A stretch of DNA of 64,000 bases. Origin: Candidatus Obscuribacterales bacterium. Lineage in GTDB: Bacteria; Cyanobacteriota; Vampirovibrionia; Obscuribacterales; Obscuribacteraceae. The stretch spans positions 800,001 to 864,000 of the forward strand of contig CBDDIJ010000002.1 of assembly GCA_965228855.1 (NCBI GenBank), written 5' to 3'. Shown piece by piece: positions 29,060-62,934 of this stretch (the first letter of the stretch is position 1; every line of letters starts with the position of its first letter). The position numbers and the translations under genes were made by a program. The notes beneath the pieces were generated by a model. It had not been told where the DNA came from, made no database searches, and saw only the letters and a program-made list of their open reading frames with translations.

Positions 29060-29143
29060 CTACTAGATCGTATCGTGATACAAAGCTTTCAAGATGTTGT
29101 GAGAATTGCTACTAGATCGTATCGTGATGCAAAGCTTTCAAGA
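29060..29143 (+). repeat. Tandem 35-bp direct repeat (period 49) of the CTACTA box region
   Basis: CTACTAGATCGTATCGTGATRCAAAGCTTTCAAGA at 29060 and 29109; first 20 bp recur at 30975. Confidence 0.9.
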
Positions 29144-29194
29144 CAGCCTCTCCGTAGCAGTTTCCAGATTTGTGCGTTTGTGGTTTGGTGTTTT

Positions 29195-29246
29195 TGGCAA
29201 CGAGAGAGCGACGATTTATCCAAATTCCGTCAATGCCACGTAGACA
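29195..29246. repeat. 52-bp symmetric core, copy A (left box at 29109; right box degenerate near 29338)
   Basis: TGGCAA-cgagagagc-GACG-atttatccaaattc-CGTC-aatgccacg-TAGACA. Confidence 0.85.
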
Positions 29247-29703
29247 GTTTGGTTGACCCTGGAGTCTGAAACCCCCGAAGTCTCTCTGTGCAGGGTTTTA
29301 CTGAGACGGACTTTACGGAGAGCTGGATTAGACGGTGGGTGGCTGAGGGCGCCGTGCGTGAGCTTCGCATCATAAATTCTGCGTGACTGCACCGTTACGG
29401 CTTGCGCTAAGGAACTGGAAACGCCGTGCGGACGGCGATGTTACGGGGTTTTAAGTGTTTCATTTCGAAATGTATTGGTGATTACTAGCGAGGCCAACTG
29501 ATAAACAGAGATGTCAACATTCTCGTCTCTGCCTCAGGAGTTCATCGTCACGCGTTCCTGAAACTCCCTCTCATTCGAAGCTTTTCGTGTCTCTTCATGG
29601 AGTCGCGTCATGGTTCGTCTGGCTGGAGAACGAGAACGGCCGCCTTTCCGCGGTCGTCGTTGAATCCACTCACGCATTGAACACAACCAAATCAGGAGTT
29701 CAA

Positions 29704-30900
29704 ATGACCAAGAAGATCGTGGTTCTCGCTGCTGCGCTGGCGGCGGCTTTGTCGTTCGCCACCTCTCAGGCGGCGTTCGCTCAGGCTCAGGTTCAAACGC
29801 AAGCAGCGGCCCTGCCGGTCGTGACGCCGCAGACGGTCGATGCAGAGCTCGCCGGCGATAAGCCGGTTTTCATCATCCTGACCGGCGCGGACTGCAACGT
29901 CTGCACCGAGATTGCGAAGCTCGCAGCGAAGTACCCGCAGATGAAGTTCCTCCAGGGAAAGGCTAGCGACTTCGATTCTCCGGATGTCGTCCACGTCGGA
30001 ATCCTCCCGCTCGCCATCGTCAGCGTCCCCGGCGTCGGCCCGACGTTCCAGCTGGAGAAGTTCGCCCCCGCCGACCTCGACAAGTTCATCGCGGAACGTG
30101 TGACTGTCGCGATGCGTCAGACTGCTGCTTCCAACAAGGTCTCAGCGGTGCGCGAGAACATCAAGACGACTTCGCAGCCGTTCAACGAAGACCTCGCGAA
30201 GCTGAACGCCGAGTACAAAGAGCTGTGGAAGCCCTACGCTGATCGCATCGATGCGGAGCGCCTCAAGGCCGCGAAGGCGACGGCACCGTTCGAAGCACAA
30301 CTCACCGCTCTCTCGAAGAAGGCGAACGACGAACGCGATCCGCTCGTCGCCAAGCTTCGCGAAATCGAGGGTCGAGCCCGCGCTGCCGTGGAGGCGGATT
30401 CGGAGATCGTGGCGCACACGAAGACGATCGGCGACCTGCGCAAGTCCTTTGCCGATGCGGAAGCCGAACTTGAGCAGCTCAAGGAGAAGGGCGTCGACGG
30501 CAAAGATGCCGCCTTCAAGGCGGTGACCGACAGGATGAGTGCGCTCGACAAGTCATTCGGCGACACGATTGCGGCTGGTCGCGCTCGTACCGTCGAGGTC
30601 ATGAAGCCGTTCGCGGAAGAGGCCAAGCCGGTTGCCGCGCAGCTCGAAGCCGTCGAAAAGAAGTTTGGTCCTCAGATCGCCGACCTCTATGCCAAGATCG
30701 AGCAGGCATCGAAGCCGTTCGCGGACGAAGCCAGCAAGATCTCTGCCGAAGGGAAGCTCATGCTCAAGCCGCACTTCGACGAGGTGGACACCGTCAAGGC
30801 CAACAAGAAGCGCGCGCTCAAGCCGCTGTTCGACGAGCTGAAGACAGCAATGGGCGAACTGGAGAAGGTTCTCGACGAGACCGCCGCGCCGGCGAAGTAA
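29704..30900 (+). CDS. Secreted thioredoxin-like (CNVC) domain plus long Pro-punctuated helical repeat
   Basis: CAGGAG RBS, signal peptide to AFA-Q, KPVFIILTGADCNVC, ~18-aa xP(F/Y/L) helical repeats. Confidence 0.75.
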   Translation: MTKKIVVLAAALAAALSFATSQAAFAQAQVQTQAAALPVVTPQTVDAELAGDKPVFIILTGADCNVCTEIAKLAAKYPQMKFLQGKASDFDSPDVVHVGILPLAIVSVPGVGPTFQLEKFAPADLDKFIAERVTVAMRQTAASNKVSAVRENIKTTSQPFNEDLAKLNAEYKELWKPYADRIDAERLKAAKATAPFEAQLTALSKKANDERDPLVAKLREIEGRARAAVEADSEIVAHTKTIGDLRKSFADAEAELEQLKEKGVDGKDAAFKAVTDRMSALDKSFGDTIAAGRARTVEVMKPFAEEAKPVAAQLEAVEKKFGPQIADLYAKIEQASKPFADEASKISAEGKLMLKPHFDEVDTVKANKKRALKPLFDELKTAMGELEKVLDETAAPAK

Positions 30901-30927
30901 TCGAGCAGCCCAAACATCAGTAGTGGA

Positions 30928-30961
30928 GCGGATGGCGAGAGATAATCTCGCCGTCCGTTTT
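30928..30961 (+). terminator. Intrinsic terminator
   Basis: GCGGATGGCGAGA/TCTCGCCGTCCGT followed by TTT. Confidence 0.8.
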
Positions 30962-30974
30962 CTTGGATCTTTTG

Positions 30975-31198
30975 CTACTAGATCGTATCGTGATGGTTTC
31001 GTTTAAAAAACCTGATAGCGCCAGTTGTTTCGTGGGACGTGATGTTTAGAGCGATGTTTTTGGCAACGAGAGAGCGACGATTTCTCGTGATTCCGTCATA
31101 GCCAGATAGACAGCCCAGAGCTATCGGAAAGACGTGTGTCTCTAGATGGTCTGTAGGGCATGTTCTAGAGGATTCGTCCTCACTGTGCGAGATAGTAG
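30975..31198. repeat. Symmetric element copy B (core 31061-31112)
   Basis: CTACTAGAT ... TGGCAA-cgagagagc-GACG-N14-CGTC-atagccaga-TAGACA ... AGATAGTAG; core centre equals element midpoint 31086.5. Confidence 0.9.
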
Positions 31199-31278
31199 CG
31201 AGGTTTGGGCTTAGCCTCACTGGATAGTAGTGGGGTTTGGACTTAGTCTCACTGTGCAAGATGGTAGCGGGGGTTTAC
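31179..31278 (+). repeat. Three degenerate tandem copies of the right box of element B
   Basis: CTCACTG(tgcra)GATRGTAGYG..GGTTT repeated three times. Confidence 0.8.
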
Positions 31279-32729
31279 TGGGTAAGGGGAGACAGCAGGG
31301 ATACGCGTCGCTCAAGCTCTTCGGCAGCCAGTCCCGCGAATGGAATTAGAAACTGATTCAGTTGTGCTCCGGACACATAGTACGGCGCCGTGCTGGTAAG
31401 GGGTAAACCCGCATCAGCTGCGGCTGATACGAATCCACGGTCCATAAGTCGTTGAGAGATTCGGATACACAAATGCAGACCGGCGCTCTGGCGTGGGACC
31501 TCGATTTCTGTTTTGAACAAAGTGAACAGCGCTCCAGTAAGAGCTTTCCGGCGTTTCTCGTAATGCGGTTTGGTTTTCTTCACGTGCAGAGCAAGTGCGC
31601 CTGTGCGCAGGAACTCAGCTAGTGCGTAGTGTTCGAGGATGGGAAACTGCCGTTCTGACAGGAATTTTACGCGTTCGAATACGGGCACCAGGGACGGTGG
31701 CACGACGGCGCAACCCGCTGTCGTCAAAGGGTAAAGAAGTTTCCAAAAGCTATACACGTAGATGACGCGCTCGTTATCATCCATTCCCTGCAGCGCCGGT
31801 AGTGGTGGATTGAGGTACGAAAAGTCGCTATCCCAGGCGTCTTCAATGATGTAGCTGTCGTTGCGCTTCGCCCAATCCAGCAGTTTTTTCCTTCGCTCCG
31901 GCGATAGAATTGTCCCTGTGGGATCGTGATAGGACGGCGTGACATAGGCTAATTTAGCCGCTTGCGACTCAAACTGATCCACCTGTATTCCGTCGATGTC
32001 GATATCGATGGGGACAAGTGTGGCGCCTCGATCGGACAGTGAGTCCCGCGCTCCGCCGTAGCCGGGATTCTCGACGATCACTCTATCTCCCGGGTCAATC
32101 AGCACTTTCGCGATGTATGTGAGCGCTTGCTGCGATCCCTGAAATACGATCACCTGTTCCGGCTGACAGTTCAAACCCTTAGTACGAGCCAGATATGACG
32201 CGATCTCGACTCGTAGTTTGTATTGACCGAGGGTCTCGGGCGCGGCGTCGAAGTGATGGGGAAGGAGCTGACGATACTGTTTCGTCAGAATCTCCTTCCA
32301 CTGATTCATCGGGAGTTCATCGGACGGGGGAGCGCCGTAATTCAAGTCCTTGAGATTGCCGGCCAGACCGGTCGAAAGCGACATTTGCATGAGTTTTGCC
32401 GCGTCGCTGGAAATTCTCGGTGGTGCCGATTGCGCTGCGCTGCGCTTCTGCACGATGTCCTTCTGGAAATTTCTTTCGAATTGACCGCGCTTACTCACGA
32501 AAGTACTGCTGCCAGTTATCGATTCTAAGTAGCCCTGGGCGATCAGGTCTTCGTACGCTTTCACGACGGTACCACGGGCGATGCCGAGCGAATTGGCCAG
32601 CTCGCGCGTGGCAGGTAGTGGCGCACCGGCTGGCAGGGTGCCGGCAATAATCCGCTCCTTCAAAGCTTTGGAAAGCTGTATGAAAAGGGGTTCTTGATTG
32701 TCTTTATCGAGTGTGAGCGGGAATTCCAT
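31275..32729 (-). CDS. MocR/GabR-family GntR regulator with PLP-dependent aminotransferase domain
   Basis: N-terminal wHTH LPATRELANSLGIARGTVVKAYEDL; GSQQAL, VENPGY, YVTPSYHDPTG, IIEDAWDSDF, SFWK. Confidence 0.93.
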   Translation of the reverse strand: MEFPLTLDKDNQEPLFIQLSKALKERIIAGTLPAGAPLPATRELANSLGIARGTVVKAYEDLIAQGYLESITGSSTFVSKRGQFERNFQKDIVQKRSAAQSAPPRISSDAAKLMQMSLSTGLAGNLKDLNYGAPPSDELPMNQWKEILTKQYRQLLPHHFDAAPETLGQYKLRVEIASYLARTKGLNCQPEQVIVFQGSQQALTYIAKVLIDPGDRVIVENPGYGGARDSLSDRGATLVPIDIDIDGIQVDQFESQAAKLAYVTPSYHDPTGTILSPERRKKLLDWAKRNDSYIIEDAWDSDFSYLNPPLPALQGMDDNERVIYVYSFWKLLYPLTTAGCAVVPPSLVPVFERVKFLSERQFPILEHYALAEFLRTGALALHVKKTKPHYEKRRKALTGALFTLFKTEIEVPRQSAGLHLCIRISQRLMDRGFVSAAADAGLPLTSTAPYYVSGAQLNQFLIPFAGLAAEELERRVSLLSPLTQ

Positions 32730-32773
32730 GGACAAATTCTAAATCAGAACACGAGGACTTTTTGTCCTCAAAA

Positions 32774-32807
32774 GCATACCAATCAAACCAATTCTGCGCA
32801 TACCAAT
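32774..32807. promoter_or_regulatory. Candidate MocR/GabR-type operator
   Basis: GCATACCAAT at 32774 and 32798 with AAACCAAT between, in the divergent promoter region. Confidence 0.6.
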
Positions 32808-33043
32808 TTAGTTGCGCACTCCTTGTTTCTTGCGATCGCTGCAAAAGGTTTCTCATCAAAGACAAAGCTGTGGTTTTAAACAGCAGCGCCTTTGTAGACT
32901 TTGTTGTCAAACCTCTTGCTGCAATTTTTTAAACCCAAACGACTAACCATCGCTCTCGATCGTTGACGGCATTCGCTCGTGGAAGAAAAGATTCACCTTT
33001 TCAGACGAGTTGTACTCGACGGTCCTGACCATAGGAGAGTGTG

Positions 33044-33661
33044 ATGTACAAACGCATTTTATTTTCATTCTCTGCCCTGCTCTTCGCCGCCACCGCTGGC
33101 GGTGCTGCTCTCGCCGCTGAAGTTCCAGTCGCGTCTCCCGAGGCAAAACCGCTCACCGCACCCGTCTCCTTCGAGCTGAAGTCGGACCCCGCGTCTCTTT
33201 CCGAAGCGGTTTCGCCGGACTCGTTAGTGCTTCAATCCACGAACCAGCAGGATTCGTCGCCGGAAGAACTCGTTCGTCGAGCGCTTCGTGATTACGACCG
33301 TTCTGTCAAGGACGACCCGTTCGGCATCAAGCCGAAGCCGGTTTATGGTCCGTCGCAGAGCGTCAGTGGAAGTCCGAACCTGAGTCAGAAGCCGCTTCGT
33401 TTCGACCGAAAGGACAGCTATTCCTATTCGGATCCCGGCGACTTCAATCCGTACGATTCCGATCGGCTTTCCAATGATGCTCGGCGTCAAATCTCAACGC
33501 AGCGGCAGCGAACTGCTGACCGCATCGCCGACATGATCTCTCCGGGTTTCGGTCGCGCTGAGTTCCAACTTGGTGAGAATCACGTTCGTGTCGATTACAT
33601 CTACTCGCGGCGTTGCAAAACGCGGGGTGTGGGCGTCTGCTTTCAAATGACGTTCCGCTGA
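33044..33661 (+). CDS. Secreted hypothetical protein
   Basis: AGGAGA RBS; signal peptide to ALA-A. Confidence 0.7.
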   Translation: MYKRILFSFSALLFAATAGGAALAAEVPVASPEAKPLTAPVSFELKSDPASLSEAVSPDSLVLQSTNQQDSSPEELVRRALRDYDRSVKDDPFGIKPKPVYGPSQSVSGSPNLSQKPLRFDRKDSYSYSDPGDFNPYDSDRLSNDARRQISTQRQRTADRIADMISPGFGRAEFQLGENHVRVDYIYSRRCKTRGVGVCFQMTFR

Positions 33662-33665
33662 AAAC

Positions 33666-33738
33666 AAGCTTGCGATGAGCGATTGCGACGACTATTCTGC
33701 ATTGCAGAGGTTTGTTGTCGTCGTCTCATCGCAAGCTT
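33666..33738 (+). terminator. 73-nt hairpin directly after the stop codon
   Basis: AAGCTTGCGATGAG / CTCATCGCAAGCTT 14-bp perfect outer stem with inner pairing. Confidence 0.55.
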
Positions 33739-33853
33739 CGGTCTCAGCTGTATGCCTACTAGATGGATTGGTAGAAATTCAAGGGCGGGAAGGGAGTCGT
33801 AGTGATGCTTTTGGAGGAAGGCGTCCCTTAGTTCGGGCGTGAAAAAGCGAGTT

Positions 33854-33905
33854 TGGCTATCTGGCTATGACGGAATTCGAAAATTCCGGCGCTCTCTCGT
33901 AGCCA
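33854..33905. repeat. 52-bp symmetric core, copy C (inverted relative to B; left box CTACTAGAT at 33756)
   Basis: TGGCTA-tctggctat-GACG-gaattcgaaaattc-CGGC-gctctctcg-TAGCCA. Confidence 0.85.
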
Positions 33906-34291
33906 GACGCCAGGCAGCTGAGTTGCGAAGTTATTTTTGAAACGGTTGTCGAGGCTTGGCTAGTCAAGTGTTGAGGCTCGTTCGGACTATGTCAGAGCTG
34001 TGCGAGGCTCTGCTGTTTTCTCAGTGACCCCAGACAGTCGGGATTAGCCGTCAAGCCAGCTGATGAGGCGTCTTATTTCTTTTAAAGAACGACAGTTTCG
34101 GAGAAGTAAAGAGAGAACCAAGATAAGAGCTCTTTGTAGCCTCATACAGACATACTTCTTCTTCCGTTTCGTAGATCTAGATCAACAGCCACAGTCAGAG
34201 CTCGCTCTCGTTTAACTCTCTACCACCAGGAGCCACTGGTGCGTCTCTCATCGCCCTGTCGCTGCGAGGCGCAGGTGAAAGGACGAGTACT

Positions 34292-34795
34292 ATGTCATCG
34301 GTACTAGTTTTGAACAGTTCTTCCGAGCCGTTGCACGTATGCGACTGGCGAAGAGCTGTCTCGCTGATTTGCAAAGGCAGAGCCCAGGTTGTAGAGCACA
34401 GCGACAGGCGCTTGCTGGCAGATGATTTCCCCTTACCGGTCGTCATCCGCCTGCATTCGCAGGTTTTTGTGCCTTACGCACCTCTCTCGGCCAGTCGCGG
34501 CAACATCCTCGCGCGCGACAAACACACCTGTCAGTATTGCGCCACCAAACGCGGCGAGATGACGCTCGACCACGTTGTTCCTCGCTCGCGTGGCGGTGGT
34601 TCAACCTGGGAGAATCTCGTTACCGCCTGCCAGAAGTGCAATGCACGCAAGGGAGACCGCAGCCTGAGCGAATCTGGCATGAAGTTGCTTTCCACGCCGG
34701 CGCGTCCTCGCGACCGGATGTCATTCCTGATCATGAAACACCGGTCGCAAAACCCGGCGTTCGAGAGCTGGTCGCGTTACCTCAAGGTTTCGTGA
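34292..34795 (+). CDS. HNH endonuclease (McrA/HNH_5-like)
   Basis: VLVLN..EPL, RDKHTCQYC, TLDHVVPRSRGG..WENLVTACQKCNARKG. Confidence 0.92.
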   Translation: MSSVLVLNSSSEPLHVCDWRRAVSLICKGRAQVVEHSDRRLLADDFPLPVVIRLHSQVFVPYAPLSASRGNILARDKHTCQYCATKRGEMTLDHVVPRSRGGGSTWENLVTACQKCNARKGDRSLSESGMKLLSTPARPRDRMSFLIMKHRSQNPAFESWSRYLKVS

Positions 34796-34829
34796 TTCTC
34801 CTCGAAGAATAAACAGAAAGAGAAATCGC

Positions 34830-36437: not shown

Positions 36438-36447
36438 GTTGGAAACG

Positions 36448-36484
36448 CTGGAGAAGTTGGCCCAAAGCCAACTTCTTCAGTTTT
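36448..36484 (+). terminator. Intrinsic terminator
   Basis: CTGGAGAAGTTGGC/GCCAACTTCTTCAG followed by TTTT. Confidence 0.8.
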
Positions 36485-36494
36485 CTGAAATTCG

Positions 36495-36717
36495 CTACTA
36501 TATAAGACAGGACAGGCAAAGCCTGCGATGGCCGACAACGTCAGGATCGCAGGCCCTGGAACGGCAAATCTCCTCTCGTTGTCTATCGCTCGATGACGAT
36601 TTTCAGTAAATCCGGCATCGAGCGATAGACAAAAGGGCCTGGCTCTGAACGGAAAACTTCAGACAGCGTCTCTGGTAGGCACTTTCGAGAATTTTCTTAT
36701 CTTATCCTGTATAGTAG
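36495..36717. repeat. Symmetric element copy D (core 36580-36631)
   Basis: Ends CTACTATATAAGACAGGACAGG / CTTATCTTATCCTGTATAGTAG form an imperfect 22-bp IR; core has a perfect 17-bp IR TTGTCTATCGCTCGATG. Confidence 0.9.
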
Positions 36718-36764
36718 TAAAATCGCTTGTCCTGTCGAGTCGATTAGCGAGGATCGGGGGCGGG

Positions 36765-37595
36765 TTAGCCGATTTCGATCAGTTCCGTTTCCGAATAAAA
36801 ATATTGTTTCGGGGAGATTGGATGCGGCGAGGATTTGAACATCTCTTGCACGAACGTTCTCATCTTAACGAGGTCTTCTTGCGAATCTTCGCCGCAAATT
36901 ACCAGGATGTCCCTTGCGGGCACCGAGATTATCGGGCTGCCCTTGACCATGTCGGTCATGTTTCTCATGAACTTTCGGTTCAGCAGTAGTCCCGATTCGA
37001 AATCGCGTCCTGAAGCCAGAACCCAGAGAGTCGGTCCGCCCTTTAGAGATATTTCGCCACCCAAAAGGTCTTTCAAGTTTTGAACGGCTTTCTCGCGCAA
37101 GTCGCTGTCATCGAGGGGAACGCTTGAGCGACCTTCCGGAGACAAATAGCCGACGGCGGCTCGCGAGTTTATACCATAAACCATTGAAAGGTCCGCACCA
37201 AGCGATTCTCGAACAAGTTTTTGCCCGATCTTCTCCTCTATCTGGTCAACTTCTTCAGTTCTTCGAATCAACGGGATCAAGTTGTTTTCTACGTCTTGCG
37301 AGGACAGGGAAGTTAGTTTGGTTGAATCGCGCATTGTTGTAATTTGCGGTTCGATGAACGCGAGTCGCTTGCCAGGCTGATCTTTGCAAGCTTTCCAAAC
37401 ATTTTCCAGGTTTAACTGCGCTGTAAGCGTTTCGCCGGACTGCGATGGGATTTGAGCCTCGATGCGGAGCGCGCTAACCACGTTCGCCAGTGCGCCCGCG
37501 ACTGATGACTGAATCAGGTTTGCGTAGATGTTCGTGAAAGTCTCATCGTCCAGATCGGACGATTCGAGCTTATCGAAATCAGGTTCCAGATTCAT
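36765..37595 (-). CDS. DUF1444-like hypothetical protein
   Basis: LIPLIR, LREKAVQNL, ESGLLL, ISVPARDILVI, SPHPIS pattern recalled from the DUF1444/YtpQ family. Confidence 0.6.
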   Translation of the reverse strand: MNLEPDFDKLESSDLDDETFTNIYANLIQSSVAGALANVVSALRIEAQIPSQSGETLTAQLNLENVWKACKDQPGKRLAFIEPQITTMRDSTKLTSLSSQDVENNLIPLIRRTEEVDQIEEKIGQKLVRESLGADLSMVYGINSRAAVGYLSPEGRSSVPLDDSDLREKAVQNLKDLLGGEISLKGGPTLWVLASGRDFESGLLLNRKFMRNMTDMVKGSPIISVPARDILVICGEDSQEDLVKMRTFVQEMFKSSPHPISPKQYFYSETELIEIG

Positions 37596-37614
37596 TTTCG
37601 TCCTCGATAGTGGC

Positions 37615-44521: not shown

Positions 44522-44621
44522 AAAGTCACCCCCGGTAAGCATGTTTGCGGGACGGGCAACTTCGCCGATGGTTCCCTTGAGCAAAAAAACCACTACTAGA
44601 CCAGACAGCAAAAAAAAACTA

Positions 44622-44870
44622 CTACTAGACTAGATAGTCTTTATTGAATGCCGTCAAATGAGACGCGGCAAGGCATTTCGGCTTTGCTTCACTAGCAGTT
44701 TCACAAAGACAACTCGTTTTGGCTATCCTGGTATGACGCATTTGGCTAAATCCGGCATTCCAGGATAGACAAAGAGACTTTTGTCTCGACTACAACGGGA
44801 CGTTAAGGACTGAAACGCCCTATCTCCACAGCGTTGCGCGGTTTTGACTGAGCATGACGGCATATAGTAG
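44622..44870. repeat. Symmetric element copy E (core 44720-44771)
   Basis: CTACTAGAC (duplicated at 44593) ... TGGCTA-tcctggtat-GACG-N14-CGGC-attccagga-TAGACA ... ATATAGTAG. Confidence 0.88.
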
Positions 44871-48314: not shown

Positions 48315-48410
48315 GTGTCAAACCTTCTCTACTGTATGATTCCGTTTCTTCCGGCGCTCTCTGTGTCAAAACCCCATCTACTATATGATCCCGTTTCTTC
48401 GGGCGCTCTC
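48315..48410 (+). repeat. Tandem ~48-bp direct repeat (period 48-49) covering the left box of element F
   Basis: GTGTCAAA..CTACTRTATGATYCCGTTTCTTCSGGCGCTCTC twice. Confidence 0.85.
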
Positions 48411-48475
48411 AAAGTTCGGTGCATTCGGGCTTCGTGGCATTTTAAGCGTTGTTCTCCACTCGAAAGATGGTTACT

Positions 48476-48527
48476 TGGCTACGCCAGAGCGACGCTTTTT
48501 GCCAAATGCGTCATGCCAGCGTAGACA
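48476..48527. repeat. 52-bp symmetric core, copy F (left box CTACTATAT at 48378)
   Basis: TGGCTA-cgccagagc-GACG-ctttttgccaaatg-CGTC-atgccagcg-TAGACA. Confidence 0.85.
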
Positions 48528-52831: not shown

Positions 52832-52838
52832 ACGCGAT

Positions 52839-53819: not shown

Positions 53820-54086
53820 ATATGGTGAGAACCCGCTTGAGACGCCGCCCCGAAGATTTTATCTTTGCGCGATTATACAAAAGTACTACTGGTATCACGC
53901 GACATGTAACAGCATCTTATATAGTATTGGTGCCATTTTTCAGTTGCTGGTTACAGGAAAGGTTAAACCTTCGGGAGAGGTCTTGTCTTCCGATATTAAC
54001 CTGTCTATTCTGTTCATGTGCGGTCGGCCACCTTAGTAAAAAACCGGAGTTTGATGGGTTTACATTAATCACTCCGCGGTCGGCGA

Positions 54087-55286: not shown

Positions 55287-55989
55287 GCGTTGTCTGGTTG
55301 AACGGTTGATCGATTTACATCTTTCAGATTCTCGCGGCTGAGGCAGGCGAGAATGGTTTTTCTGTAAACGAGAACGATTTCGTGCGAGGAAACGATTGCG
55401 GAGGGTATTCCGGATGACTGATTGCCGTGATGTCAGGTGCTTGCGCAGGTTGTCGCAATTGATCCTGTTGGCATGTGGGTTTGTCTGTTGACAAGCTTGT
55501 GAGGCTTGATTTGATTTCGGTTTCAACGCCTTTCGTTTTGCTTAATATATTGCGCGCTTTGCGTCACACTTTTGTTGTCAGTAGCAAGTGGTGGCACATT
55601 TGGTGCCCCATAAGCGGCTTGAAAATGATTTGAGCTCGTCCATAATTCGCTCAAGAAGATGGTTTTCAAGAACTTGAACCGACCTTTGCTATATCAATAC
55701 TTTTAAATACTCATTACTTTTTCCTGCCAACATTTTCGGCTTATCTCACCAAAGACAAGCACAAAGCCTCCTAACCACTCGTTTTAACTGTCACTGAGTG
55801 ACTGGTAGGGAAGCTGTCTTTTTCTTTCACGTGGAATTCTGCTCGAAGCGGATTCTACTCCGGAGGTCGCGTTAACGATTTCCGACTCTTCGCAAGGGAC
55901 ACGGCTGGTGCGTACAAGACAAGTGCGTTCCTCGCCTGGTCGTGAACATATACTCGGCTGCAAAGCCGCGAACGAGAAGGGCTAAATAG

Positions 55990-57123: not shown

Positions 57124-57127
57124 GCGC

Positions 57128-57165
57128 ACGGGAGTGTGGCAGTCGCCGCACTCCCGTTGATTTTT
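57128..57165 (+). terminator. Intrinsic terminator
   Basis: ACGGGAGTGTGGC/GCCGCACTCCCGT followed by a T-rich tail. Confidence 0.75.
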
Positions 57166-57241
57166 ATCAGCGTCCTCTTACTTCAAGTGCAATGGTTTCC
57201 CCGAACCATGCGGATAGCTTATAACACGGGAGACCCCTAAT

Positions 57242-58336
57242 ATGGCTAACCACAAATTCTCTAGCCCGAACATCACTGAAATGCTCGGGGTTACTCCTAT
57301 TGCTCTTGTCACGGACGAAGAAATCTGGACGCGGTTGGTCACGCCCCAGGTCAAAGCTTTGCTCGGTGACATTGTTTCCAGCAAGGTTGAACTCCGTGAA
57401 ACCGTCGATGGAACCTTCAATGGCGATGAAGTGACCAACTTCAACGACCACCGTCTCTACGGCGGCAAGGAGGGTTTCAAGTACATTCGTTTCCCCTACA
57501 TCCACTCGCACTACAAGACCACTTACGGCTCGCTCGTCATCAAGCGCGACGGCGCGAAGTTCAAGGTCCTCGGATACGTCGGCAATGTCGAGAAGGGTCC
57601 GTTCGACCTGATCTTCAAGGTCGCTCTGCGTGACCGCCGCTTCGACGGAACGGCTCGCGCCAACGACTGCTCGCTGGTGGACTTCATCGGTTACGAAGAT
57701 CCCACGCTCAACCACACCCTGCAGATTGCGGGGCTGGTCGAGAACGCGACAGCAGTCGAGCTGTCCACCTACGGCTTCATGCCCGGCAGTCGCATTGTCG
57801 ACGCCACTGGTGACGAGCAGCTCGATGAGTTTGTTCGCAATCCGTACCTGTTCGTCGGCAAGCCGAAAACCTGGCTGCGCCTGTTCAAGAAGGCGTGGAA
57901 GTCGAAGCGTTCGCCCGGTCAGAACGGCAACCCCGTTCCGGACATCGCTCGCCTGGTGCCCAACATCGTCGAAGCCATGGCTTTCGAGCGTGGTTACGAC
58001 TACATGGAAAACGCACCCAGCCACTATCATGTGGCTAAGTGGGCGGAGAGCTGCAAGTACTGGTATTCCGACCCGGAACAGGCTGCAGCCCTCAAGGCTC
58101 TGGGTGCCGGTATTGCAAGCGTCAAGGCAGCCGGCGAGACGTTGACTCGTCCGCAAGAGTCCTGGCTTGTCGCGATGCAGAGCCTGCCGAAGGAATTCAT
58201 TCCCGAGAAGTTTTACTTCGGCGGCGCCAAGTGGCCTCAGGACAACATCGGTCCCGAGAACCTCTGGATGTACAAGCCTTTGTCCGACCGCGCCAAAGCA
58301 TCAGCAGCTGCTGTTGCCGCGGCGAGTTCGAAATAG
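57242..58336 (+). CDS. Hypothetical protein, tandem paralog 2
   Basis: Colinear similarity with 55990..57123 over the full length. Confidence 0.85.
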   Translation: MANHKFSSPNITEMLGVTPIALVTDEEIWTRLVTPQVKALLGDIVSSKVELRETVDGTFNGDEVTNFNDHRLYGGKEGFKYIRFPYIHSHYKTTYGSLVIKRDGAKFKVLGYVGNVEKGPFDLIFKVALRDRRFDGTARANDCSLVDFIGYEDPTLNHTLQIAGLVENATAVELSTYGFMPGSRIVDATGDEQLDEFVRNPYLFVGKPKTWLRLFKKAWKSKRSPGQNGNPVPDIARLVPNIVEAMAFERGYDYMENAPSHYHVAKWAESCKYWYSDPEQAAALKALGAGIASVKAAGETLTRPQESWLVAMQSLPKEFIPEKFYFGGAKWPQDNIGPENLWMYKPLSDRAKASAAAVAAASSK

Positions 58337-58344
58337 CGTTTCGT

Positions 58345-58392
58345 GGCGGCGGATTTTCAGGCTCACCCCTGAACTTCCGCCGCCCTTTTTTT
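58345..58392 (+). terminator. Intrinsic terminator
   Basis: GGCGGCGGA/TCCGCCGCC followed by T7. Confidence 0.8.
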
Positions 58393-58571
58393 CGATCCAC
58401 TACTATATGCCGGCGTTGAACATTGTTGGAGGCGGTGTCTCGAAAGGCATGCTGTTACTGCGTCATGCCGATGCGGGTGAGACAGGCGGCAGATTTGCAG
58501 TGTCTTTTGGCAACGAGAGAGCGACGGATTTCGCGAATTCCGTCATAGTGGCGTAGATAGTGTGTTAGGTG

Positions 58572-59534
58572 TCAAGCCAGAGTGCTGTTAAACCTGGAAT
58601 CGAATGGTTGTTTCGAGCGATATACAGCGACCATCATACGGAGAAGTTTGCGTGAGGCGGCACAAACAATTACTTTTCTGTTTTTTCCCTTTGCTGCCAG
58701 TCGTTTAGCGAATTCAGCCACTGGCGGATTAAACCGAGTGGCGGTAAGGGCGGCCATGTACAACATGCTGCGGATCACTGGATTTCCCATCTTCGAAATT
58801 CTGGAACGTCCTCGGACTGAAGAACCGGACTCACGGATCATGGGATTCAGACCACAGAATGCTTCGATCTGGCGCAAGCTCGTAAACGAGTCCATCATCG
58901 ACAGTTCTGAGAGAAACGTGAATGCTGTTCTCCAGCCGACGCCCTTAATCGTCTGGAGTAATTTAGCGTTGCTTTTCAAAGCAGGATTCTCGGAGACCAG
59001 CGTCTTCGCCAGCTTTTCCAGTGTTTGAATTTCGTTGGTAATGAACTTCAACATACGCATCTGAGAGTCTAAAGCGCGCTGGTCCAGGCGTCCCGATTTC
59101 ATTCGATTTGTGACTTGGGTTTTGGTTTTCTTTAGCGCAGCGAGCTCTCTACAAATGTCTCTCAGGGAGCGAATGTCAGGATCCATCGGAGACCAAGGAA
59201 GGGGCTCCATTTTAAAACAAAAGTCGGCGATGATTTCCGCATCGATTGCGTCGGTTTTTGAACGTCTAAATTGGCTCTTGCCGAAGGCGTGTATCAGCGC
59301 TGGATTTACCACGCTGACTCGATAGCCAAGTTTGTGTAGAAACTCCGCAAGGGGCTCCCAGAGCTTCCCCGTAGCTTCCATGCAAAAGTGAACATCCTTA
59401 CCGGATGCTTGAATCCATTTGACTATTCTCTTGAACCCAGCTGGGTTATTGCTGACGTGCAGCTTCGAATTCTTCCTGTCCTGGCGATGGCAGTCTAACG
59501 TCTCCTTCGATACGTCGATTCCAACAAAGATCAT
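58572..59534 (-). CDS. IS110-family DEDD transposase / bridge recombinase
   Basis: VGIDVSK, MEATG, KTDAIDA (D-E-D-D); TIKGVG, GLNP..RESGSS..G..RISKMGN; AGGAG RBS. Confidence 0.96.
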   Translation of the reverse strand: MIFVGIDVSKETLDCHRQDRKNSKLHVSNNPAGFKRIVKWIQASGKDVHFCMEATGKLWEPLAEFLHKLGYRVSVVNPALIHAFGKSQFRRSKTDAIDAEIIADFCFKMEPLPWSPMDPDIRSLRDICRELAALKKTKTQVTNRMKSGRLDQRALDSQMRMLKFITNEIQTLEKLAKTLVSENPALKSNAKLLQTIKGVGWRTAFTFLSELSMMDSFTSLRQIEAFCGLNPMIRESGSSVRGRSRISKMGNPVIRSMLYMAALTATRFNPPVAEFAKRLAAKGKNRKVIVCAASRKLLRMMVAVYRSKQPFDSRFNSTLA

Positions 59535-59563
59535 TGCTCCTACCTCCTGTTGCTGGTTCGCTT

Positions 59564-59796
59564 GGACGCGGATAGAATCTTGTCAGGGCGAGCCTTGTTT
59601 ACACGTGCTAAATCGGTCAGGATTTGCTGTAGATAGTGTTCAGCCTTAGAGGACAAGACAGGAGCGGAAGTCCGAAATCTACGCCTCTGACTTTCTAGCC
59701 GGAGACAAAATACTGGTTTCTTCCGCTCCTCTATCCTCGCGTCCTCGGATAGCCTTGCCGACTGCACGCTCCTGGTCAACAGCAACGTACCAGTCA
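59564..59796 (-). ncRNA. Predicted bridge RNA of the IS110 element
   Basis: Target loop closed by 11-bp IR (59660-70/59720-30) with guides TATTTTGTCT and GGCGTAG; donor loop closed by TCTTGTC/GACAAGA with guides ACACTATCT and ACAAG; transcript ends approximate. Confidence 0.82.
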
Positions 59797-59936
59797 ACAT
59801 CTAACGTACAAGACAAATATGAGGACCGTTTCGCGGTCGAAGTGCAAATCCCCGAGCCATGTGGCTTTGGGCATCTCGAAGGTGTGGAGTTTTATAGTAG
59901 GATTGGCCGGCAGGTTCAAAATCCCGGGACTGCCGC

Positions 59937-60746
59937 TTACTTCGCTGATTCGGCGACTTCTTTGTCGGAACCTTGACCGCCCGAATTAGTTCCACCCTCA
60001 GCGGCGGCATAGCGCACTACAATCATGGTGACGTTGTCCGGGGCGCCGCCATCGAGTGTTGCCTTGAGAAGCTTTTCGCAGGCGTCCTTTGGTGTTTCAC
60101 AGGTGGCTACGATTTCGCCGATGTTTTCGTCCAGAACAACTGTGGATAGACCGTCACTCGACAGAATGAGCCAATCTCCGGGCTTCATCTCTGCTGGAGT
60201 TCTATCAATCTCGACTTTAGCTTTGTGACCGACGCATCGAGTGAGATAGTGGCGGAACGGGCTGTTGCGAAGCTGTTCTTCGCTCATTCGTCCTTGCAAC
60301 ACCATCTCCATGACCACCGAATGATCCTGAGTAAGCACGACGGTTTTGCCCTCGCGAATCAGGTAAGCACGCGAGTCTCCGACGTGCGCGATTTGCAGAC
60401 TTCCATCGGGACAATGGATTGCCGCGACAATTGTTGTACCCATGTCCTTCACTGCAGGGTCGGCTGCTGCTGCATCAAACACATCCTGGTTGGCGTTCGA
60501 AACCGCCTCCACGAGCCATGCTTGAATGGTATTGGCGTCGACCGAATTCGGTTGACGCTCGTTCCATAACTTTTCAACTGCGAGAATCGCAAGCTTGCTG
60601 GCTTTACTTCCGCCTTTCATGCCGCCCATCCCGTCAGCGACTACGAGGAGTCGATTGTCGGAACTCACAAACATATTGTCCTGATTTTCGGTTCTCTTGA
60701 TTCCAGGATCAGTGACGGAGGCAACCTGCCACGAAACTTTAGTCAT
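59937..60746 (-). CDS. PP2C-family Ser/Thr protein phosphatase (Stp1/PrpC-like)
   Basis: TDPG.KR..NQD, VADGMGG, MGTT, AHVGDSRAY, LTQDHS, LSSDGL, GAPDNVT. Confidence 0.95.
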   Translation of the reverse strand: MTKVSWQVASVTDPGIKRTENQDNMFVSSDNRLLVVADGMGGMKGGSKASKLAILAVEKLWNERQPNSVDANTIQAWLVEAVSNANQDVFDAAAADPAVKDMGTTIVAAIHCPDGSLQIAHVGDSRAYLIREGKTVVLTQDHSVVMEMVLQGRMSEEQLRNSPFRHYLTRCVGHKAKVEIDRTPAEMKPGDWLILSSDGLSTVVLDENIGEIVATCETPKDACEKLLKATLDGGAPDNVTMIVVRYAAAEGGTNSGGQGSDKEVAESAK

Positions 60747-61104
60747 CGTTTCCCCTGCAAACGAGTGTGTACTTCGGTACTGAGTTTATACCCCAGTGCA
60801 TATAGCCACTATCCCAAATTTCATAGAAAAAGAAACTCCTGTCATGGGTGATTGCCAAGGTGTTAAGAGGGTGGCGTTGTTCGCGCAGCGCCGCCATAAG
60901 GTATAGATTCATTGCGAGGAGTAGGTAGTGAGCTGTAACAAAAGTTTCTTGAGTCCAGGATCTGATCTCTTCTAAAAATAGTCGTTACTCAACCCAACCC
61001 CGACACCCTTTTGCTCCTGGTCCGATAAACCGAGAATCACAATCAATGCTGATAAACCGACCGAGACGGTTGGTGGGTGTCGCATTTGCTGAACGGAGTT
61101 TGGC

Positions 61105-62358
61105 ATGAATAAAACCTACTTGGCCCTTGGAGCTGTTGCAGTCATCATTGCAGCAGTCGTTGGGCTGACCACGTTTTGGTCGCCTCGTCCCGAGCCCGTG
61201 AGGGTGCCTTCTTATCTTGAGAAGGCCTCTGGCGAGACGATTCTTCCACCAGCCAGTCGTGAGGAGATTCAGCGTCGCGTGCAGTTTGCGCCCGACGGTT
61301 TCACTCGAGAGCGGCTTGTTGTCTTCTTCACCAACGGCGACGTCGGCGTGACTGTGTTCAATCCCGACCGCAGCGCCATTGTGTTCCGCTTCTATCCGCC
61401 GGGTGATGGATTCGACTGGAAAGCGTCTGCGTTTTCCGAGAAGGGCATGAAAAGCCGAGTCGAACGCGCTGCCGATGGAAAAACAATCATGGCGGAACGG
61501 CACTGGTACGAGGACGGAACGCTGAAGCGCCTCGGGCAGCGGCTTCCCGCCGGTGGCTATCAGGTTACCGCTTTCTTCGGCGACGGCGTCACCATGTCGG
61601 AGAGCACCTTGTTCTCCAACACCGGCGTGCTCGAAATCCAGTCGATGTACTACCAGACCGGAATCCTCAAAAGCGTTCTGAAAAGCAAGTACAACGGCTT
61701 GTACAAGGACTGGGTCAGTTATTTCCCCGACGGCAAGAAATCTGCTTTCCACATCGTCGAGGGTAACACCGAGCGTGGTGAGTTCTATTACGATGACGGT
61801 GTGACGGTTCGCATCAAGTTCATGAAAGAGCTCATCTCGCGAAACTTCATGGGCGTTTCGGTGGTGACGGCGGTGTACAACAACGCCGATGGAACGCTCA
61901 ATCACACGCGCGTGTGGGATACGAACAGCATGAAGGTCAGCTATCCCGCGGTAAACGGGAAGCCGGCGTTCACGCAGATCTGGAGATACGTCGACGCGAA
62001 GAAGGCGCAAAACCGTCTCGCTATCGATAACTTTCAGCTCCAGTCGGTAAGCGTTGCCAGGCTTGACGGTATCGACAATGTCGATATTTCGCTGGGCAAA
62101 GATCAGATTCCGGTCGAGATTCGTTTCGTTCGCAAGAACGACAAGGGCGTCGAGGAGCGCATCACGCGCAAGCTTCGAGCCGACGGTACTGTCGAATCCG
62201 AATCTGTGGCCAGCTACTCCGGCGGACGCGTCGAGCGCAAATTCACTGGTGAAGAGGGCGGGCGTGTAATCATTCCTGTCGACTTCTTCGCCGCGGGCTC
62301 GTATGAGGCACCACCTTCGGTGCCATCCGAATTCTCGTATTACCCGGGTGGTTACTGA
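61105..62358 (+). CDS. Membrane-anchored protein with MORN-variant/YwqK-like beta repeats
   Basis: N-terminal TM; repeats WYEDGTLK, YYQTGILK, YFPDGKK, YYDDG, YNNADGTL. Confidence 0.75.
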   Translation: MNKTYLALGAVAVIIAAVVGLTTFWSPRPEPVRVPSYLEKASGETILPPASREEIQRRVQFAPDGFTRERLVVFFTNGDVGVTVFNPDRSAIVFRFYPPGDGFDWKASAFSEKGMKSRVERAADGKTIMAERHWYEDGTLKRLGQRLPAGGYQVTAFFGDGVTMSESTLFSNTGVLEIQSMYYQTGILKSVLKSKYNGLYKDWVSYFPDGKKSAFHIVEGNTERGEFYYDDGVTVRIKFMKELISRNFMGVSVVTAVYNNADGTLNHTRVWDTNSMKVSYPAVNGKPAFTQIWRYVDAKKAQNRLAIDNFQLQSVSVARLDGIDNVDISLGKDQIPVEIRFVRKNDKGVEERITRKLRADGTVESESVASYSGGRVERKFTGEEGGRVIIPVDFFAAGSYEAPPSVPSEFSYYPGGY

Positions 62359-62451
62359 TAAGGAGCCACTTCCCATTGCTTCAGACGGGCTTGGCAAGCC
62401 GAGCCTTGCAGCTGAGAGTTTAATGCTGCCGTAAACATCTGGAGTGATTCA

Positions 62452-62652
62452 ATGTCCATCGCATTGACCCTTCTCGCGCTGGTTGTAGCCACCGCGATTC
62501 TCGTGCGGGTCAAGAAGAAGCAGGCTGAGCGCCGTGACGCTGCTCAGGTCTTCTACGTTTGCAGGCAATGCGAACATCCGTACGTGATGCCGAACGTCCC
62601 TCTCCGTTGCCGTCGTTGTGACGGTCCGGTCGAGAAGACCTTCGAGAACTGA
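62452..62652 (+). CDS. Small membrane-anchored zinc-ribbon protein
   Basis: GGAG RBS; N-terminal TM; CRQC...CRRC. Confidence 0.7.
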   Translation: MSIALTLLALVVATAILVRVKKKQAERRDAAQVFYVCRQCEHPYVMPNVPLRCRRCDGPVEKTFEN

Positions 62653-62656
62653 GTCC

Positions 62657-62695
62657 AACCAGGGCATGGCGCCTACCCTGCCATGCCCTGGTTTT
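62657..62695 (+). terminator. Intrinsic terminator
   Basis: AACCAGGGCATGGC/GCCATGCCCTGGTT followed by TT. Confidence 0.8.
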
Positions 62696-62707
62696 CCTCA
62701 ACCTTGG

Positions 62708-62934
62708 CTACTATATGAAGTAGGTCTCTCTCTTCGTTCGAATGTCCCGACCTGGAATGGTTTAGGGCAAAACCTTTGCGAGCGACTATCTCGACTGCCT
62801 ATCCAGGAACGACGGAATCTCGGAAAACCGTCACTCCTGGATAGACACGATGCTCCTCATTCTGAAATTAAATCCCGGAAGTCACGCGCAGGCGGGTACT
62901 GCAGAAGTTTGGTAAATCCTGTCGAATATAGTAG
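62708..62934. repeat. Symmetric element copy H (core 62796-62847)
   Basis: CTACTATAT ... TGCCTA-tccaggaac-GACG-N14-CGTC-actcctgga-TAGACA ... ATATAGTAG; midpoint 62821 vs core centre 62821.5. Confidence 0.9.

Follow-up and report, generated by a model that had tools for sequence, protein, structure and literature searches.

A lineage-specific family of 225–250-bp intergenic repeats in an Obscuribacterales genome, with a symmetric core and boxes that may be a binding site for a dimeric protein

What is the symmetric element that recurs eight times, with fixed geometry, between the genes of a 64,000-nucleotide stretch of an Obscuribacterales genome (the window; contig CBDDIJ010000002.1, positions 800,001–864,000)? 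The host is a non-photosynthetic relative of cyanobacteria. A sequence-only reading had left the choice between a protein-binding or recombination site and an old REPIN/MITE-like family. A mixture fits: repeat-family behaviour and a constraint like that of a protein-binding site were borne out, but recombination and the REPIN variant were not. The best reading is that of an old REP-dimer/MITE-like repeat, now retained as a putative double-stranded protein-binding site.

The repeat family and its units

A scan of the window with the pattern proposed earlier returned exactly the eight cores that had been noticed (Table 1), seven as exact matches and copy G with one mismatch, compared with a mean of 0.03 and a maximum of 1 in 100 dinucleotide-preserving shuffles. 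The family is dispersed between the genes of the 8.2-Mb genome, with 134 cores by the strict pattern and 217 by profile; the control pattern, read backwards, gave 0. No match to an Rfam family, a plasmid or phage record, or a RAYT or Ssn system was obtained.

From one end to the other, a full unit has a CTACTAKA box, a first arm, the 52-bp dyad core, a second arm and an inverted box; the arms measure about 86 or 97–98 bp. The upstream CTACTA(G/T)A box claimed for each window core was present in 8/8, at 85–108 bp from the core start, and the five claimed inverted boxes were recovered in B, D, E and H directly and in G after removal of its insertion sequence; the right box is absent from A, C and F. 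CTACTA was found upstream of 98 and TAGTAG downstream of 85 of the 134 strict cores (8 and 16, respectively, in the wrong orientation), and 260 of the 385 CTACTAKA boxes of the genome faced a core. A surplus of these boxes was limited to the two genomes rich in cores. Two-box units throughout the genome measured near 224–226, 235–238 and 244–249 bp, in agreement with the suggested 223–249 bp; the three classes therefore point to two arm classes (about 86 and 97–98 bp), with no single spacing value. The box-to-core distance was sharply bimodal, with 84–90 bp in 81 and 94–101 bp in 73 of 166 arms, and the two lengths may simply represent two founder subfamilies. No box pair in the genome enclosed a gene.

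Some window copies carry additional parts. Element A has a second, duplicated box with the start of an arm at 29060 (135 bp from the core start); element B, between convergent genes, has a further TAGTAG ending at 31230; element E has an additional box at 44593 (127 bp to the core start) and, in the sister genome G007, is tandemly duplicated with a period of 199 bp. In element C the core is in essence that of a B-type copy in reverse complement, so that the window copies are more alike than a comparison on one strand implies. Element D, whose core is a near-perfect palindrome, is placed between two convergent genes and is bordered on its outer sides by the terminator-like hairpins of these genes.

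Table 1. Positions of the repeat elements and of the insertion sequence in the window
Feature	Position	Strand	Details
Element A	29109..29246		left box CTACTAGA at 29109, 86-bp arm, core 29195–29246
Element B, complete unit	30975..31198		box 30975, core 31061–31112, inverted box end 31198; box-to-core 86
Element C	33756..33905		box 33756, 98-bp arm, core 33854–33905
Element D, complete unit	36495..36717		box 36495, core 36580–36631, inverted box end 36717; box-to-core 85
Element E, complete unit	44619..44870		box 44619, core 44720–44771, inverted box end 44870; box-to-core 101
Element F	48378..48527		box 48378, 98-bp arm, core 48476–48527; divergent intergenic region
Element G, left part	58400..58557		box 58400, 108-bp arm, core from 58508, broken by IS after ...GTAGA
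IS110-family insertion sequence, 1253 bp	58558..59810	-	transposase 58572–59534; inside element G
Element G, right part	59811..59900		core remainder AGACA, right arm, inverted box end 59900
Element H, complete unit	62708..62934		box 62708, core 62796–62847, inverted box end 62934; box-to-core 88; between convergent genes

The single mismatch of copy G is due to the IS110 insertion into the final bases of its core; in G007 the orthologous copy has no IS, is uninterrupted and ends GTAGACA. Three identical copies of this IS occur, all of them within cores and at one and the same core position, and the core end is a precise landing site for IS110 elements.

Copies lie in the gaps past gene ends, preferentially between convergent genes. 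With gene positions from a crude in-house ORF and codon-usage caller, the 159 occupied regions were 64 convergent, 79 tandem, 13 divergent and 3 genic, compared with 14% convergent, 52% tandem and 34% divergent among intergenic regions at baseline. Recurrent neighbours were histidine kinases, S41 peptidases, TPR proteins and IS110. A 1.1-Mb domain, 13% of the genome, contained 177 of the 217 copies (binomial p ~1e-114). This domain, −740 to +330 kb relative to dnaA, includes the GC-skew minimum (switch) and the single dnaA of the genome, and has a G+C content of 0.53–0.60 vs 0.50. Confinement to it could reflect domain history or local spread and not function; no polarity of the elements relative to the origin was detected (Fisher p = 0.15).

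Constraint on core and boxes

The core is composed of two independent 26-bp half-sites in inverted order (TGKCTA, 9 variable bases, GMCGGAWTT), of which discrete variants are freely combined. The genome (G000) was compared with its sister G007 (~94% identity) over 434,757 aligned bases. Mismatches amounted to 11/640 (1.7%) at the fixed core positions and 4/312 (1.3%) in the boxes, compared with 5.9% (N9), 5.4% (N14), 8.9% (arms) and 10.1% (third codon positions). The evolution of core and boxes is 5–7 times slower than that of the arms, which change at about the third-codon-position rate. Tested against half the arm rate, which is only a rough correction for conditioning on copies that still fit the pattern in one genome, the core gave p = 1e-4 and the boxes gave p = 1.5e-3. 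The 11 orthologous pairs of equal length differed by 4.0% in the half-sites and by 11% in the flanking 120 bp. Three cores of a third relative (G303:C8) were identical at 156/156 positions, including 96 outside the fixed letters of the search pattern, and their arms differed by ~8–10%. Within the two or three closely related genomes that this comparison covers, the slow change of core and boxes favours recognition as double-stranded DNA.

It had been proposed that spacing rather than hairpin pairing is conserved. Of the window copies, D, E and H indeed have complementary N9 arms and the other five do not, as read off the pattern matches; N9 arms at most two positions off perfect complementarity occurred in 25/134 cores vs 10.8 in shuffles, the majority being not complementary. 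Among 102 non-redundant cores, the variable symmetric positions showed no covariation (Watson-Crick pairing at positions 16/35, 0.53 vs 0.55 expected; at 2/49, 0.59 vs 0.56), and therefore the hairpin is not the conserved feature. The other half of the proposal, selection on spacing, was not upheld, since indels were as common in orthologous half-units (9/41) as in control intergenic segments (17/95).

The DNA between box and core is unconserved, as had been suspected: 210 of 268 arms matched no other arm. Weak position-specific composition was present (GTA at +15, with runs of A and of T at +32 and +53, respectively), and the arms had no common pairing, no surplus folding energy (mean z −0.19) and no 10–11-bp A/T periodicity, which would be expected for wrapped DNA. 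In a few dispersed copies arms are held in common together with the adjoining half-site, which indicates that the half-unit is what is inherited.

On these data we would give about an even chance to the reading that the family consists of lineage-specific 225–250-bp intergenic repeats, with the 52-bp symmetric core and the CTACTAKA boxes under purifying selection as a double-stranded site of a putative dimeric protein. The repeat is likely a docking site for such a putative DNA-binding protein, of which one subunit would occupy each half-site of the core, with outer contacts that would be provided by the boxes some 86 or 97 bp away.

Alternative explanations

A purely selfish, non-autonomous MITE or REP dimer is a possible, if doubtful, explanation. 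The boxes would act as terminal inverted repeats, and a transposase or nuclease would have its internal site in the core; there would be no host role, and apparent conservation would stem from recent copying, gene conversion or ascertainment. Much of the family's behaviour is that of a repeat family: high copy number, a narrow lineage range, extragenic position, a unit of defined length bounded by inverted terminal boxes, tandem amplification, and related arms in some dispersed copies. Insertion at CTAG with duplication of TA, as the presumed rule, would suit the C-TA...TA-G at the outer side of the boxes. REPs, according to Di Nocera et al. 2013 (PMC3733652), are high-copy extragenic palindromes located after genes and between convergent genes; they form head-to-head dimers, including heterodimers, with spacers that may retain length while differing in sequence. 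IS110-family elements favour REPs as targets, as described in PMC11208160. The elements described here share all of these traits. Yet most arms have no relative among other copies, and the comparison of filled and empty sites suggested earlier yielded no clean case between G000 and G007 over ~500 kb, the differences examined being almost all in tandem copy number, plus an IS insertion and one replacement. No target duplication was seen outside the boxes (2-nt: 2/46 vs 1.99 expected), and no box pair carries a gene. A partner gene (RAYT, Ssn-type or other) was not found; Y1/RAYT genes are absent from the element-bearing genomes and present in three element-free relatives. Old immobile copies retain box and core despite saturated arms, which selection among elements cannot produce. 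The REPIN reading does not stand, as both RAYT and hairpins are missing.

It is quite improbable that the element acts as single-stranded nucleic acid, either as an RNA terminator or stabiliser hairpin, as small convergent RNAs from the boxes, or as a hairpin of ssDNA that an Ssn-type nuclease would cleave. In its favour are cores that form almost perfect palindromes of 52 nt (within the window, D, E and H), the modest enrichment of N9 complementarity and the position after genes, which is typical of RNA-level REP functions (PMC3733652). The half-sites read outward CGTC-AT ... CCA/ACA, reminiscent of the NTS motif (PMC11893778) and of REPs tagged with CGTC (PMC3733652), and some match the first nine NTS letters, CGTCATTCC. 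Against this stand the lack of covariation and the large internal mismatches of most cores; half-sites are also too short for the 8–9-bp stem that defines CGTC REPs. By eye, units lie outside the genes' apparent own terminators, which the consensus scan did not list. The box is no general promoter motif (CTACTA upstream of genes, 67 vs 145 expected), and Rfam gave no match. Ssn-related motifs (SRMs), as described by Chenal et al. 2025 (PMC11893778), are single hairpins that are cut as ssDNA by SsnA GIY-YIG nucleases and flank ssnA. Here the repeats are likewise CGTC-AT-led and of high copy number, but without a hairpin; of small GIY-YIG genes there is only one, found in 8/8 genus genomes and flanked by neither cores nor hairpins.

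A role as an att, res or attC recombination site, with the core as crossover between two recombinase-binding halves, the boxes as arm-type sites and half-site mixing as a trace of past exchanges, appears highly improbable. The central 14 bp between the two independent half-sites has GC or CG as its middle dinucleotide, and a given half-site variant is seen alongside many different partners. The layout of a core and outer sites over ~240 bp resembles that of phage attP. Three genes missing at the syntenic loci of G002 and G005 adjoin elements A–D, and the genome has 17 tyrosine-recombinase matches, two of them inside the 1.1-Mb domain. However, G000 and G007 are collinear over ~500 kb that contain 66 and 112 cores, and no rearrangement ends at a core; half-site differences in 11 clean orthologous pairs are Poisson-like (mean 1.05, variance 0.95 per 26 nt), without wholesale swaps; and intervals of a single gene between elements show no enrichment (18 vs 24 expected). 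The check for a co-occurring recombinase showed none associated with the elements and no such gene among the recurrent neighbours.

Relation to known repeats and possible role

Read outward, the half-sites start CGKC-AW, end MCA (CCA/ACA) and often contain GTAG, which echoes the tags and CCA tail of GTAG- and CGTC-tagged REPs (PMC3733652). Unlike REPs, the half-units are not stem-loops, with only 12 nt between tag and tail and no pairing; the tags lie inside the dyad and not at unpaired ends, a second tier of conserved boxes is found 86 or 97 bp off, RAYT is missing from the carriers, and the family is confined to the origin-side domain.

Correia/NEMIS elements of Neisseria and ERIC/IRU are likewise lineage-specific intergenic repeats of 100–250 bp with terminal inverted repeats and tens to hundreds of copies, some with a central protein-binding site. 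In these, copies resemble each other over the full unit and have target duplications on either side, whereas here only ends and centre are alike, and neither duplications flanking the boxes nor insertion polymorphism were seen. A symmetric site repeated in one replication-defined domain and rare elsewhere is also known from matS/MatP (E. coli terminus domain), ram/RacA and parS/ParB (origin domains). Those are sites of 13–16 bp, with 10–25 copies, conserved across genera and with known proteins; the present unit has three parts, 225–250 bp and ~180 copies, in 3/301 genomes. ParB_N is absent from the chromosome and equally from element-free relatives.

A burst of a REP-dimer/MITE-like unit, founded with two arm lengths, would have occurred in the ancestor of this small clade; the arms would since have decayed, and core and boxes would have been retained through use by a host or resident protein, perhaps in an architectural or topological role in the origin-proximal domain. 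Since the family is present in 3 of the 301 genomes of the class that were searched, and in 3 of 8 of the genus, any host function would be recent and dispensable for close relatives.

Architecture and range of the element

Scanning of the window with the pattern TGBCWA-N9-GMCG-N14-CGKC-N9-TWGVCA, where N9 and N14 are variable stretches, returned exactly the eight cores (A to H) which had been reported from the sequence alone, seven of them exact and one with a single mismatch, against a mean of 0.03 matches in shuffled sequence. A CTACTA(G/T)A box was present upstream of all eight, and the five downstream inverted boxes of the sequence-only reading were recovered in B, D, E and H, and also in G past an insertion sequence. 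The mismatch is that of copy G, where an IS110 element of 1253 bp sits in the last bases of the core; in the sister genome, G007, which is collinear with the window at 93–95% identity, the G locus carries no IS and its core is intact. The copies are more alike than a comparison on one strand shows, because C, when both strands are read, is the B type reversed.

In the whole genome (G000; 8.2 Mb, 6 contigs, with the window at C2:800001-864000), 134 strict matches were obtained, and none with the same pattern read backwards. A profile built from the strict copies detected 217 loci with strands merged, on contigs C2 (182), C3 (25) and C5 (10). The core consensus is TGKCTA-YS-NNNN-RWT-GMCGGAWTT-ysNNrs-AAWTCCGKC-AWY-NNNN-SR-TAGMCA, usually preceded by TTT and followed by AAA. 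The 268 half-sites contained 157 different N9 strings; a few recurred, CGAGAGAGC in 14 half-sites, TCTGGCTAT in 13 and TCCTGGAAT in 11, and each of these was combined with numerous partners. CTACTA was found upstream of 98 of the 134 cores, TAGTAG downstream of 85, and both around 59; boxes in the wrong orientation numbered 8 and 16. The distance between box and core, determined for 166 arms, was bimodal, with 84–90 bp in 81 (mode 86) and 94–101 bp in 73 (modes 96–98), besides minor classes of 74–76 bp (eight arms) and 108–111 bp (three arms); two-box units therefore measure about 225, 236 or 247 bp. Units bounded by the terminal inverted repeats CTACTAKA ... TMTAGTAG had lengths near 224–226, 235–238 and 244–249 bp; a complete one is found at 36495–36717 of the window. 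Tandem arrays with periods of 146, 157, 165–171 and about 209 bp also occur, one period comprising box, arm and core, and the next box following a few bases past the core. A core subtype, TGTCAAT...ATTGACA, forms tandem arrays of 73 bp with identical 21-bp spacers containing CTAG, mainly in G007, where they are much expanded compared with G000. A CRISPR interpretation of these arrays was ruled out, since the spacers do not differ between units.

The DNA between box and core had been described as unconserved, and this held throughout the genome: 210 of 268 arms (100 nt) had no detectable relative among the others. Alignment by the box left a faint signal, i.e., GTA at +15 (about 70–75%), a run of A over +32 to +34 and one of T over +53 to +55. 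An arm hairpin of A run, stem and T run, seen by eye, was discarded; the arms had no common secondary structure, the mean folding z was -0.19, and pairing at the expected columns was explained by composition. Words of the type CCGAAA/TTTCGG are common in all intergenic DNA of G000. DNA wrapping was likewise dismissed, as no helical A/T periodicity (10–11.5 bp) was present in the arms. Dispersed copies which share an arm also share the adjoining half-site, and not always the other half; thus, inheritance is by half-units.

Among 41 relatives, matches to the pattern were found in G000 (134), G007 (113) and G006 (2, in an assembly of 740 contigs) and in no others; a class-wide sample of 301 genomes gave matches in the same three. 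An excess of CTACTAKA boxes was seen only in G000 (385) and G007 (276), the other six members of the genus having 86–140. In these six element-poor genomes the word was 3–7 times rarer than its backwards-read version, and in G000 and G007 the gap was about 2-fold, narrowed by the elements' own boxes. Public records with many copies bear the title Candidatus Obscuribacterales bacterium. Five elements (L028–L030, L159, L161) were found at a contig end in G303, a record labelled Acidobacteria; this stretch is orthologous to C2:562–566 kb of G000, with about 93% identity, and probably belongs, judging from that match, to a third relative, the contig being mis-binned or chimeric. Transfer between phyla was therefore set aside, mis-binning being simpler. 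In one short-read run (X1) contigs end at cores; repeats can break such assemblies. The genus members G002 and G005 have no element in syntenic, well-assembled regions where G000 has eight; alignment of empty sites was tried, and the intergenic DNA was too diverged to align. Three genes adjoining elements are missing from these otherwise syntenic regions, two without a Pfam match and one with DUF1444. For the element, which the sequence-only reading could not assign to a known family, neither Rfam nor plasmid and phage collections contained a match, and nothing relevant was found in the literature on repeats in Obscuribacter or Melainabacteria.

Coordinates of features connected with the elements or noted beside them
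Feature	Location	Strand	Remarks
IS110 element	window 58558-59810	minus	5' non-coding end 59535-59810
Second IS110-type element	G000, C2:197223-198188, 987926-988891; C5 near 861,000 and 1,462,500		four copies
TGTCAAT-subtype 73-bp arrays	G007, C3:39549-39986, 59832-60269, 64199-64636		loci L099, L100
Replacement of a core	G000, C2:1001890-1003783		1.9 kb of unique DNA
dnaA	G000, C2:793284-793766		sole match in G000
Element-bearing contig end	G303, C8:83,500-88,578		record labelled Acidobacteria
Genes missing in G002/G005	window 29587-30900, 33041-33661, 36765-37595		each adjoins an element (A–D)
Protein of 1894 aa	window 3491-9175		restriction-endonuclease-like N-terminal domain, UvrD-type helicase, C-terminal double zinc ribbons

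Constraint on core and boxes

Mismatches were counted in an alignment of G000 with G007 which covered 434,757 bases. They amounted to 1.7% at fixed core positions (11/640) and 1.3% in boxes (4/312), compared with 5.9% in N9, 5.4% in N14, 8.9% in arms, 5.8% in other intergenic DNA and 10.1% at third codon positions. Since the copies were picked by pattern in G000, a neutral site would still show about half of the neutral divergence; when tested against 4.5%, the halved arm rate, core and box mismatches gave p = 1e-4 and p = 1.5e-3, respectively. N9 and N14 were likewise under the arm rate (p ~0.003–0.005). In 11 loci of equal length the half-sites differed by 4.0% and the flanking 120 bp by 11%, with half-site difference counts which were Poisson-like (mean 1.05, variance 0.95). 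Three cores of the third relative were identical at 156/156 positions, and the arms of these differed by about 8–10%. Protection of arm length was not detectable, indels occurring in 9 of 41 orthologous half-units versus 17 of 95 control segments; selection on spacing was not supported, the arm indel rate being equal to that of the controls, and drift from two founder lengths would account for the spread of 1–2 bases in either length class.

The copy number and range of the family, together with its inverted ends and its growth in tandem, are those of a dispersed repeat. A purely selfish element is the explanation ranked second, although a doubtful one: old copies retain core and boxes despite neutral drift of the arms, which selection among elements cannot do. 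This retention points to a use of core and boxes, by the cell or a resident protein, as a putative duplex binding site. The explanation ranked first, to which we give about as much credence as doubt, is that of an old repeat burst which is now retained as a putative protein-binding site.

Covariation was examined with 102 non-redundant cores, at symmetric positions which alternate between two letters, and none was detected: pair 16/35 gave 0.53 versus 0.55 expected, pair 2/49 gave 0.59 versus 0.56, and pairing of 19/32 was below expectation. N9 arms with at most two mismatches from complementarity were present in 25 of 134 cores versus 10.8 in shuffles, a modest excess, most being non-complementary. 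No internal palindrome was found in the half-sites. GTAG and CGTC, of which REPs carry one as an unpaired tag at a hairpin end, both occur in the consensus, where each stands, inside the dyad, opposite its own complement. The earlier statement that hairpin pairing is not what is conserved was thus correct, and from the lack of covariation and the mostly non-complementary N9 it follows that the conserved feature is two independent 26-bp half-sites in inverted order. Such a pair suits reading by a dimeric protein on double-stranded DNA and would be no requirement of a folded RNA or of a single strand; the same two results make an RNA or single-strand element very improbable.

In form, the family comes nearest, among described repeats, to REP dimers in head-to-head order, which can be heterodimers with spacers that keep length but not sequence (PMC3733652). 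The unit of REPs and REPINs, however, is an imperfect palindrome of 20–40 bp which folds as a stem-loop, and the elements have neither covariation between halves nor an internal palindrome. Integron attC sites fold as the bottom strand and have R''/L''/L'/R' boxes, and their cassettes form a single array beside intI, whereas the elements are unpaired and dispersed over 1.1 Mb. Ssn-related motifs (NTS/SRM) are CGTC-led hairpins, repeats of which flank ssnA (GIY-YIG, cd10448); the elements form no hairpin, and the corresponding gene is not flanked by cores.

Turnover, insertion sequences and partner genes

In about 500 kb of G000 alignable with C3 of G007, 66 cores were present in G000 and 112 in G007; 48 of the 66 were spanned by one alignment including both flanks. 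The differences inspected were of three kinds, namely tandem copy number, IS insertions and one replacement, in which unique DNA stands in place of about 100 bp including a core, the element being intact in G007. A clean insertion of a whole unit, i.e., a filled and an empty site, was not found in this stretch of two long-read genomes. No direct repeat suggestive of a target-site duplication was detected outside the boxes, a search to which a TA counted within the box is invisible, and no core-less boxes paired around genes, as would an autonomous partner with the same ends. The suggestion of a recombination site from the sequence-only reading, the least probable of all, was not supported, since in the G000/G007 alignment no rearrangement ends at a core, and tyrosine recombinases, although present in the genome, are not associated with the elements. 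The idea of gene cassettes was given up as well: intervals with a single gene between elements were not enriched genome-wide (18 versus 24 expected), and gene content differs at many element-free places too.

The guess of an old REPIN- or MITE-like family stood in part. Copy number, narrow range, inverted ends and tandem growth agree with it; RAYT, hairpin, target duplication and whole-length homology are missing. MITEs share with the elements terminal inverted repeats which bound a unit of defined length; they have, in addition, homology between copies over the whole length, as opposed to the mostly unrelated arms described here, and target-site duplications, presence/absence polymorphism and an autonomous partner, none of which was found for the elements. 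Genomes with REPs and REPINs encode a Y1 (RAYT) transposase, the gene of which is usually flanked by repeats; PF01797 had no match in G000, G007 and G006, with control genomes positive, and did have matches in the element-free G002, G003 and G005. On defining features, the family does not qualify as a REP/RAYT, MITE, attC or Ssn motif.

Other candidate partners were rejected as well. A small GIY-YIG gene is present in all eight members of the genus, flanked by neither cores nor hairpins. ParB_N had no match on the chromosome or in seven of the eight genus genomes, the sole one lying on the 182-kb contig C4 of G000; ParB was rejected. A family of 407–417 aa which adjoins four elements is shared with relatives that lack the elements, and no lead was obtained from the ESM Atlas. 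Recurrent neighbours were histidine kinases, response regulators, S41 peptidases and TPR proteins, all ordinary large families, with IS110 as the exception.

The IS110 element of the window has three identical copies in G000, all at the same spot between ...CGTAGA and AGACAAA..., the core-end letters at the insertion point being GGCGTAGA and AGACAAA, a candidate programmed target. Its 5' non-coding end contains GGCGTAGATTT, which repeats the letters left of the insertion point, and TTTTGTCT, which complements those on the right. IS110 bridge RNAs make this kind of match with their targets; the two strings are thus a candidate guide pair of a bridge RNA. Four further IS110-type genes adjoin cores, with insertion inside the variable N9 as judged by the truncated cores beside them; a second IS110-type element, present in four copies and about 82% like the first over 210–220 bp of its end (four partial matches), sits within N9 and not at the core end. 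The IS110 family is known for insertion into REP elements (PMC11208160).

Placement on the chromosome and significance

Gene positions were obtained with our own ORF and codon-usage caller. Of 159 occupied regions, 64 were convergent, 79 tandem, 13 divergent and 3 genic; the baseline of intergenic regions of at least 150 bp comprised 305 convergent, 1173 tandem and 768 divergent ones. The elements are high-copy and extragenic, with a bias towards gene ends and convergent gaps, and the box lies at a median of 99 bp beyond the stop codon. Just outside the box of B, D and H, a hairpin rich in G+C and, after it, a T run were seen by eye; a simple scan listed none of these. A promoter function of the box was rejected, as CTACTA is under-represented upstream of genes (67 versus 145 expected), and only one box was called promoter-like. 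A run labelled RNA-Seq (X11) had the character of DNA contigs.

The region C2:0.05–1.13 Mb, 13% of the genome, holds 177 of the 217 copies (binomial p ~1e-114). Its G+C content is 0.53–0.60, compared with about 0.50 elsewhere; in the first 50 kb of C2 values up to 0.66 were noted. GC skew turns from negative to positive near 800 kb of C2, and the opposite turn is on C3 near 1.55 Mb. Judged by this turn and by the sole dnaA at 793 kb, the likely origin of replication is about 6 kb away from the start of the window, and around it the element-rich domain spans about -740 kb to +330 kb. Orientation of the elements relative to the origin showed no bias. Confinement to one replication-defined domain is shared with sites of the matS, ram and parS type; those have a dedicated binding protein, for which no candidate was found here. 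Of all features, the restriction to the origin side is the most suggestive, although the distinct composition of that domain is a confounder. It is conceivable, if rather unlikely, that about 180 sites belong to an undescribed architectural system for marking, compacting or segregating the 1.1 Mb near the origin, each forming a three-part protein-DNA complex of two 26-bp half-sites and two outer boxes. The outer boxes of the two arm classes would then be placed about one helical turn apart, and the set would operate in a lineage without chromosomal ParB.

It has long been asked which purpose intergenic repeats serve in bacterial cells, and this family separates the variables unusually well. 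Because the arms have decayed to noise, with centre and ends still held, the constrained letters could be mapped without an experiment; hairpin formation can be set aside, and the copies have a distribution restricted to the origin side. The IS110 elements provide a natural example of a non-coding end which carries letters matching the landing site. Even if the family were only a decayed mobile element, repeats resembling REP dimers would be extended to a new lineage and a new architecture. For the Obscuribacterales, poorly known non-photosynthetic relatives of cyanobacteria, the unit of 225 bp offers a concrete probe for finding a DNA-binding protein.
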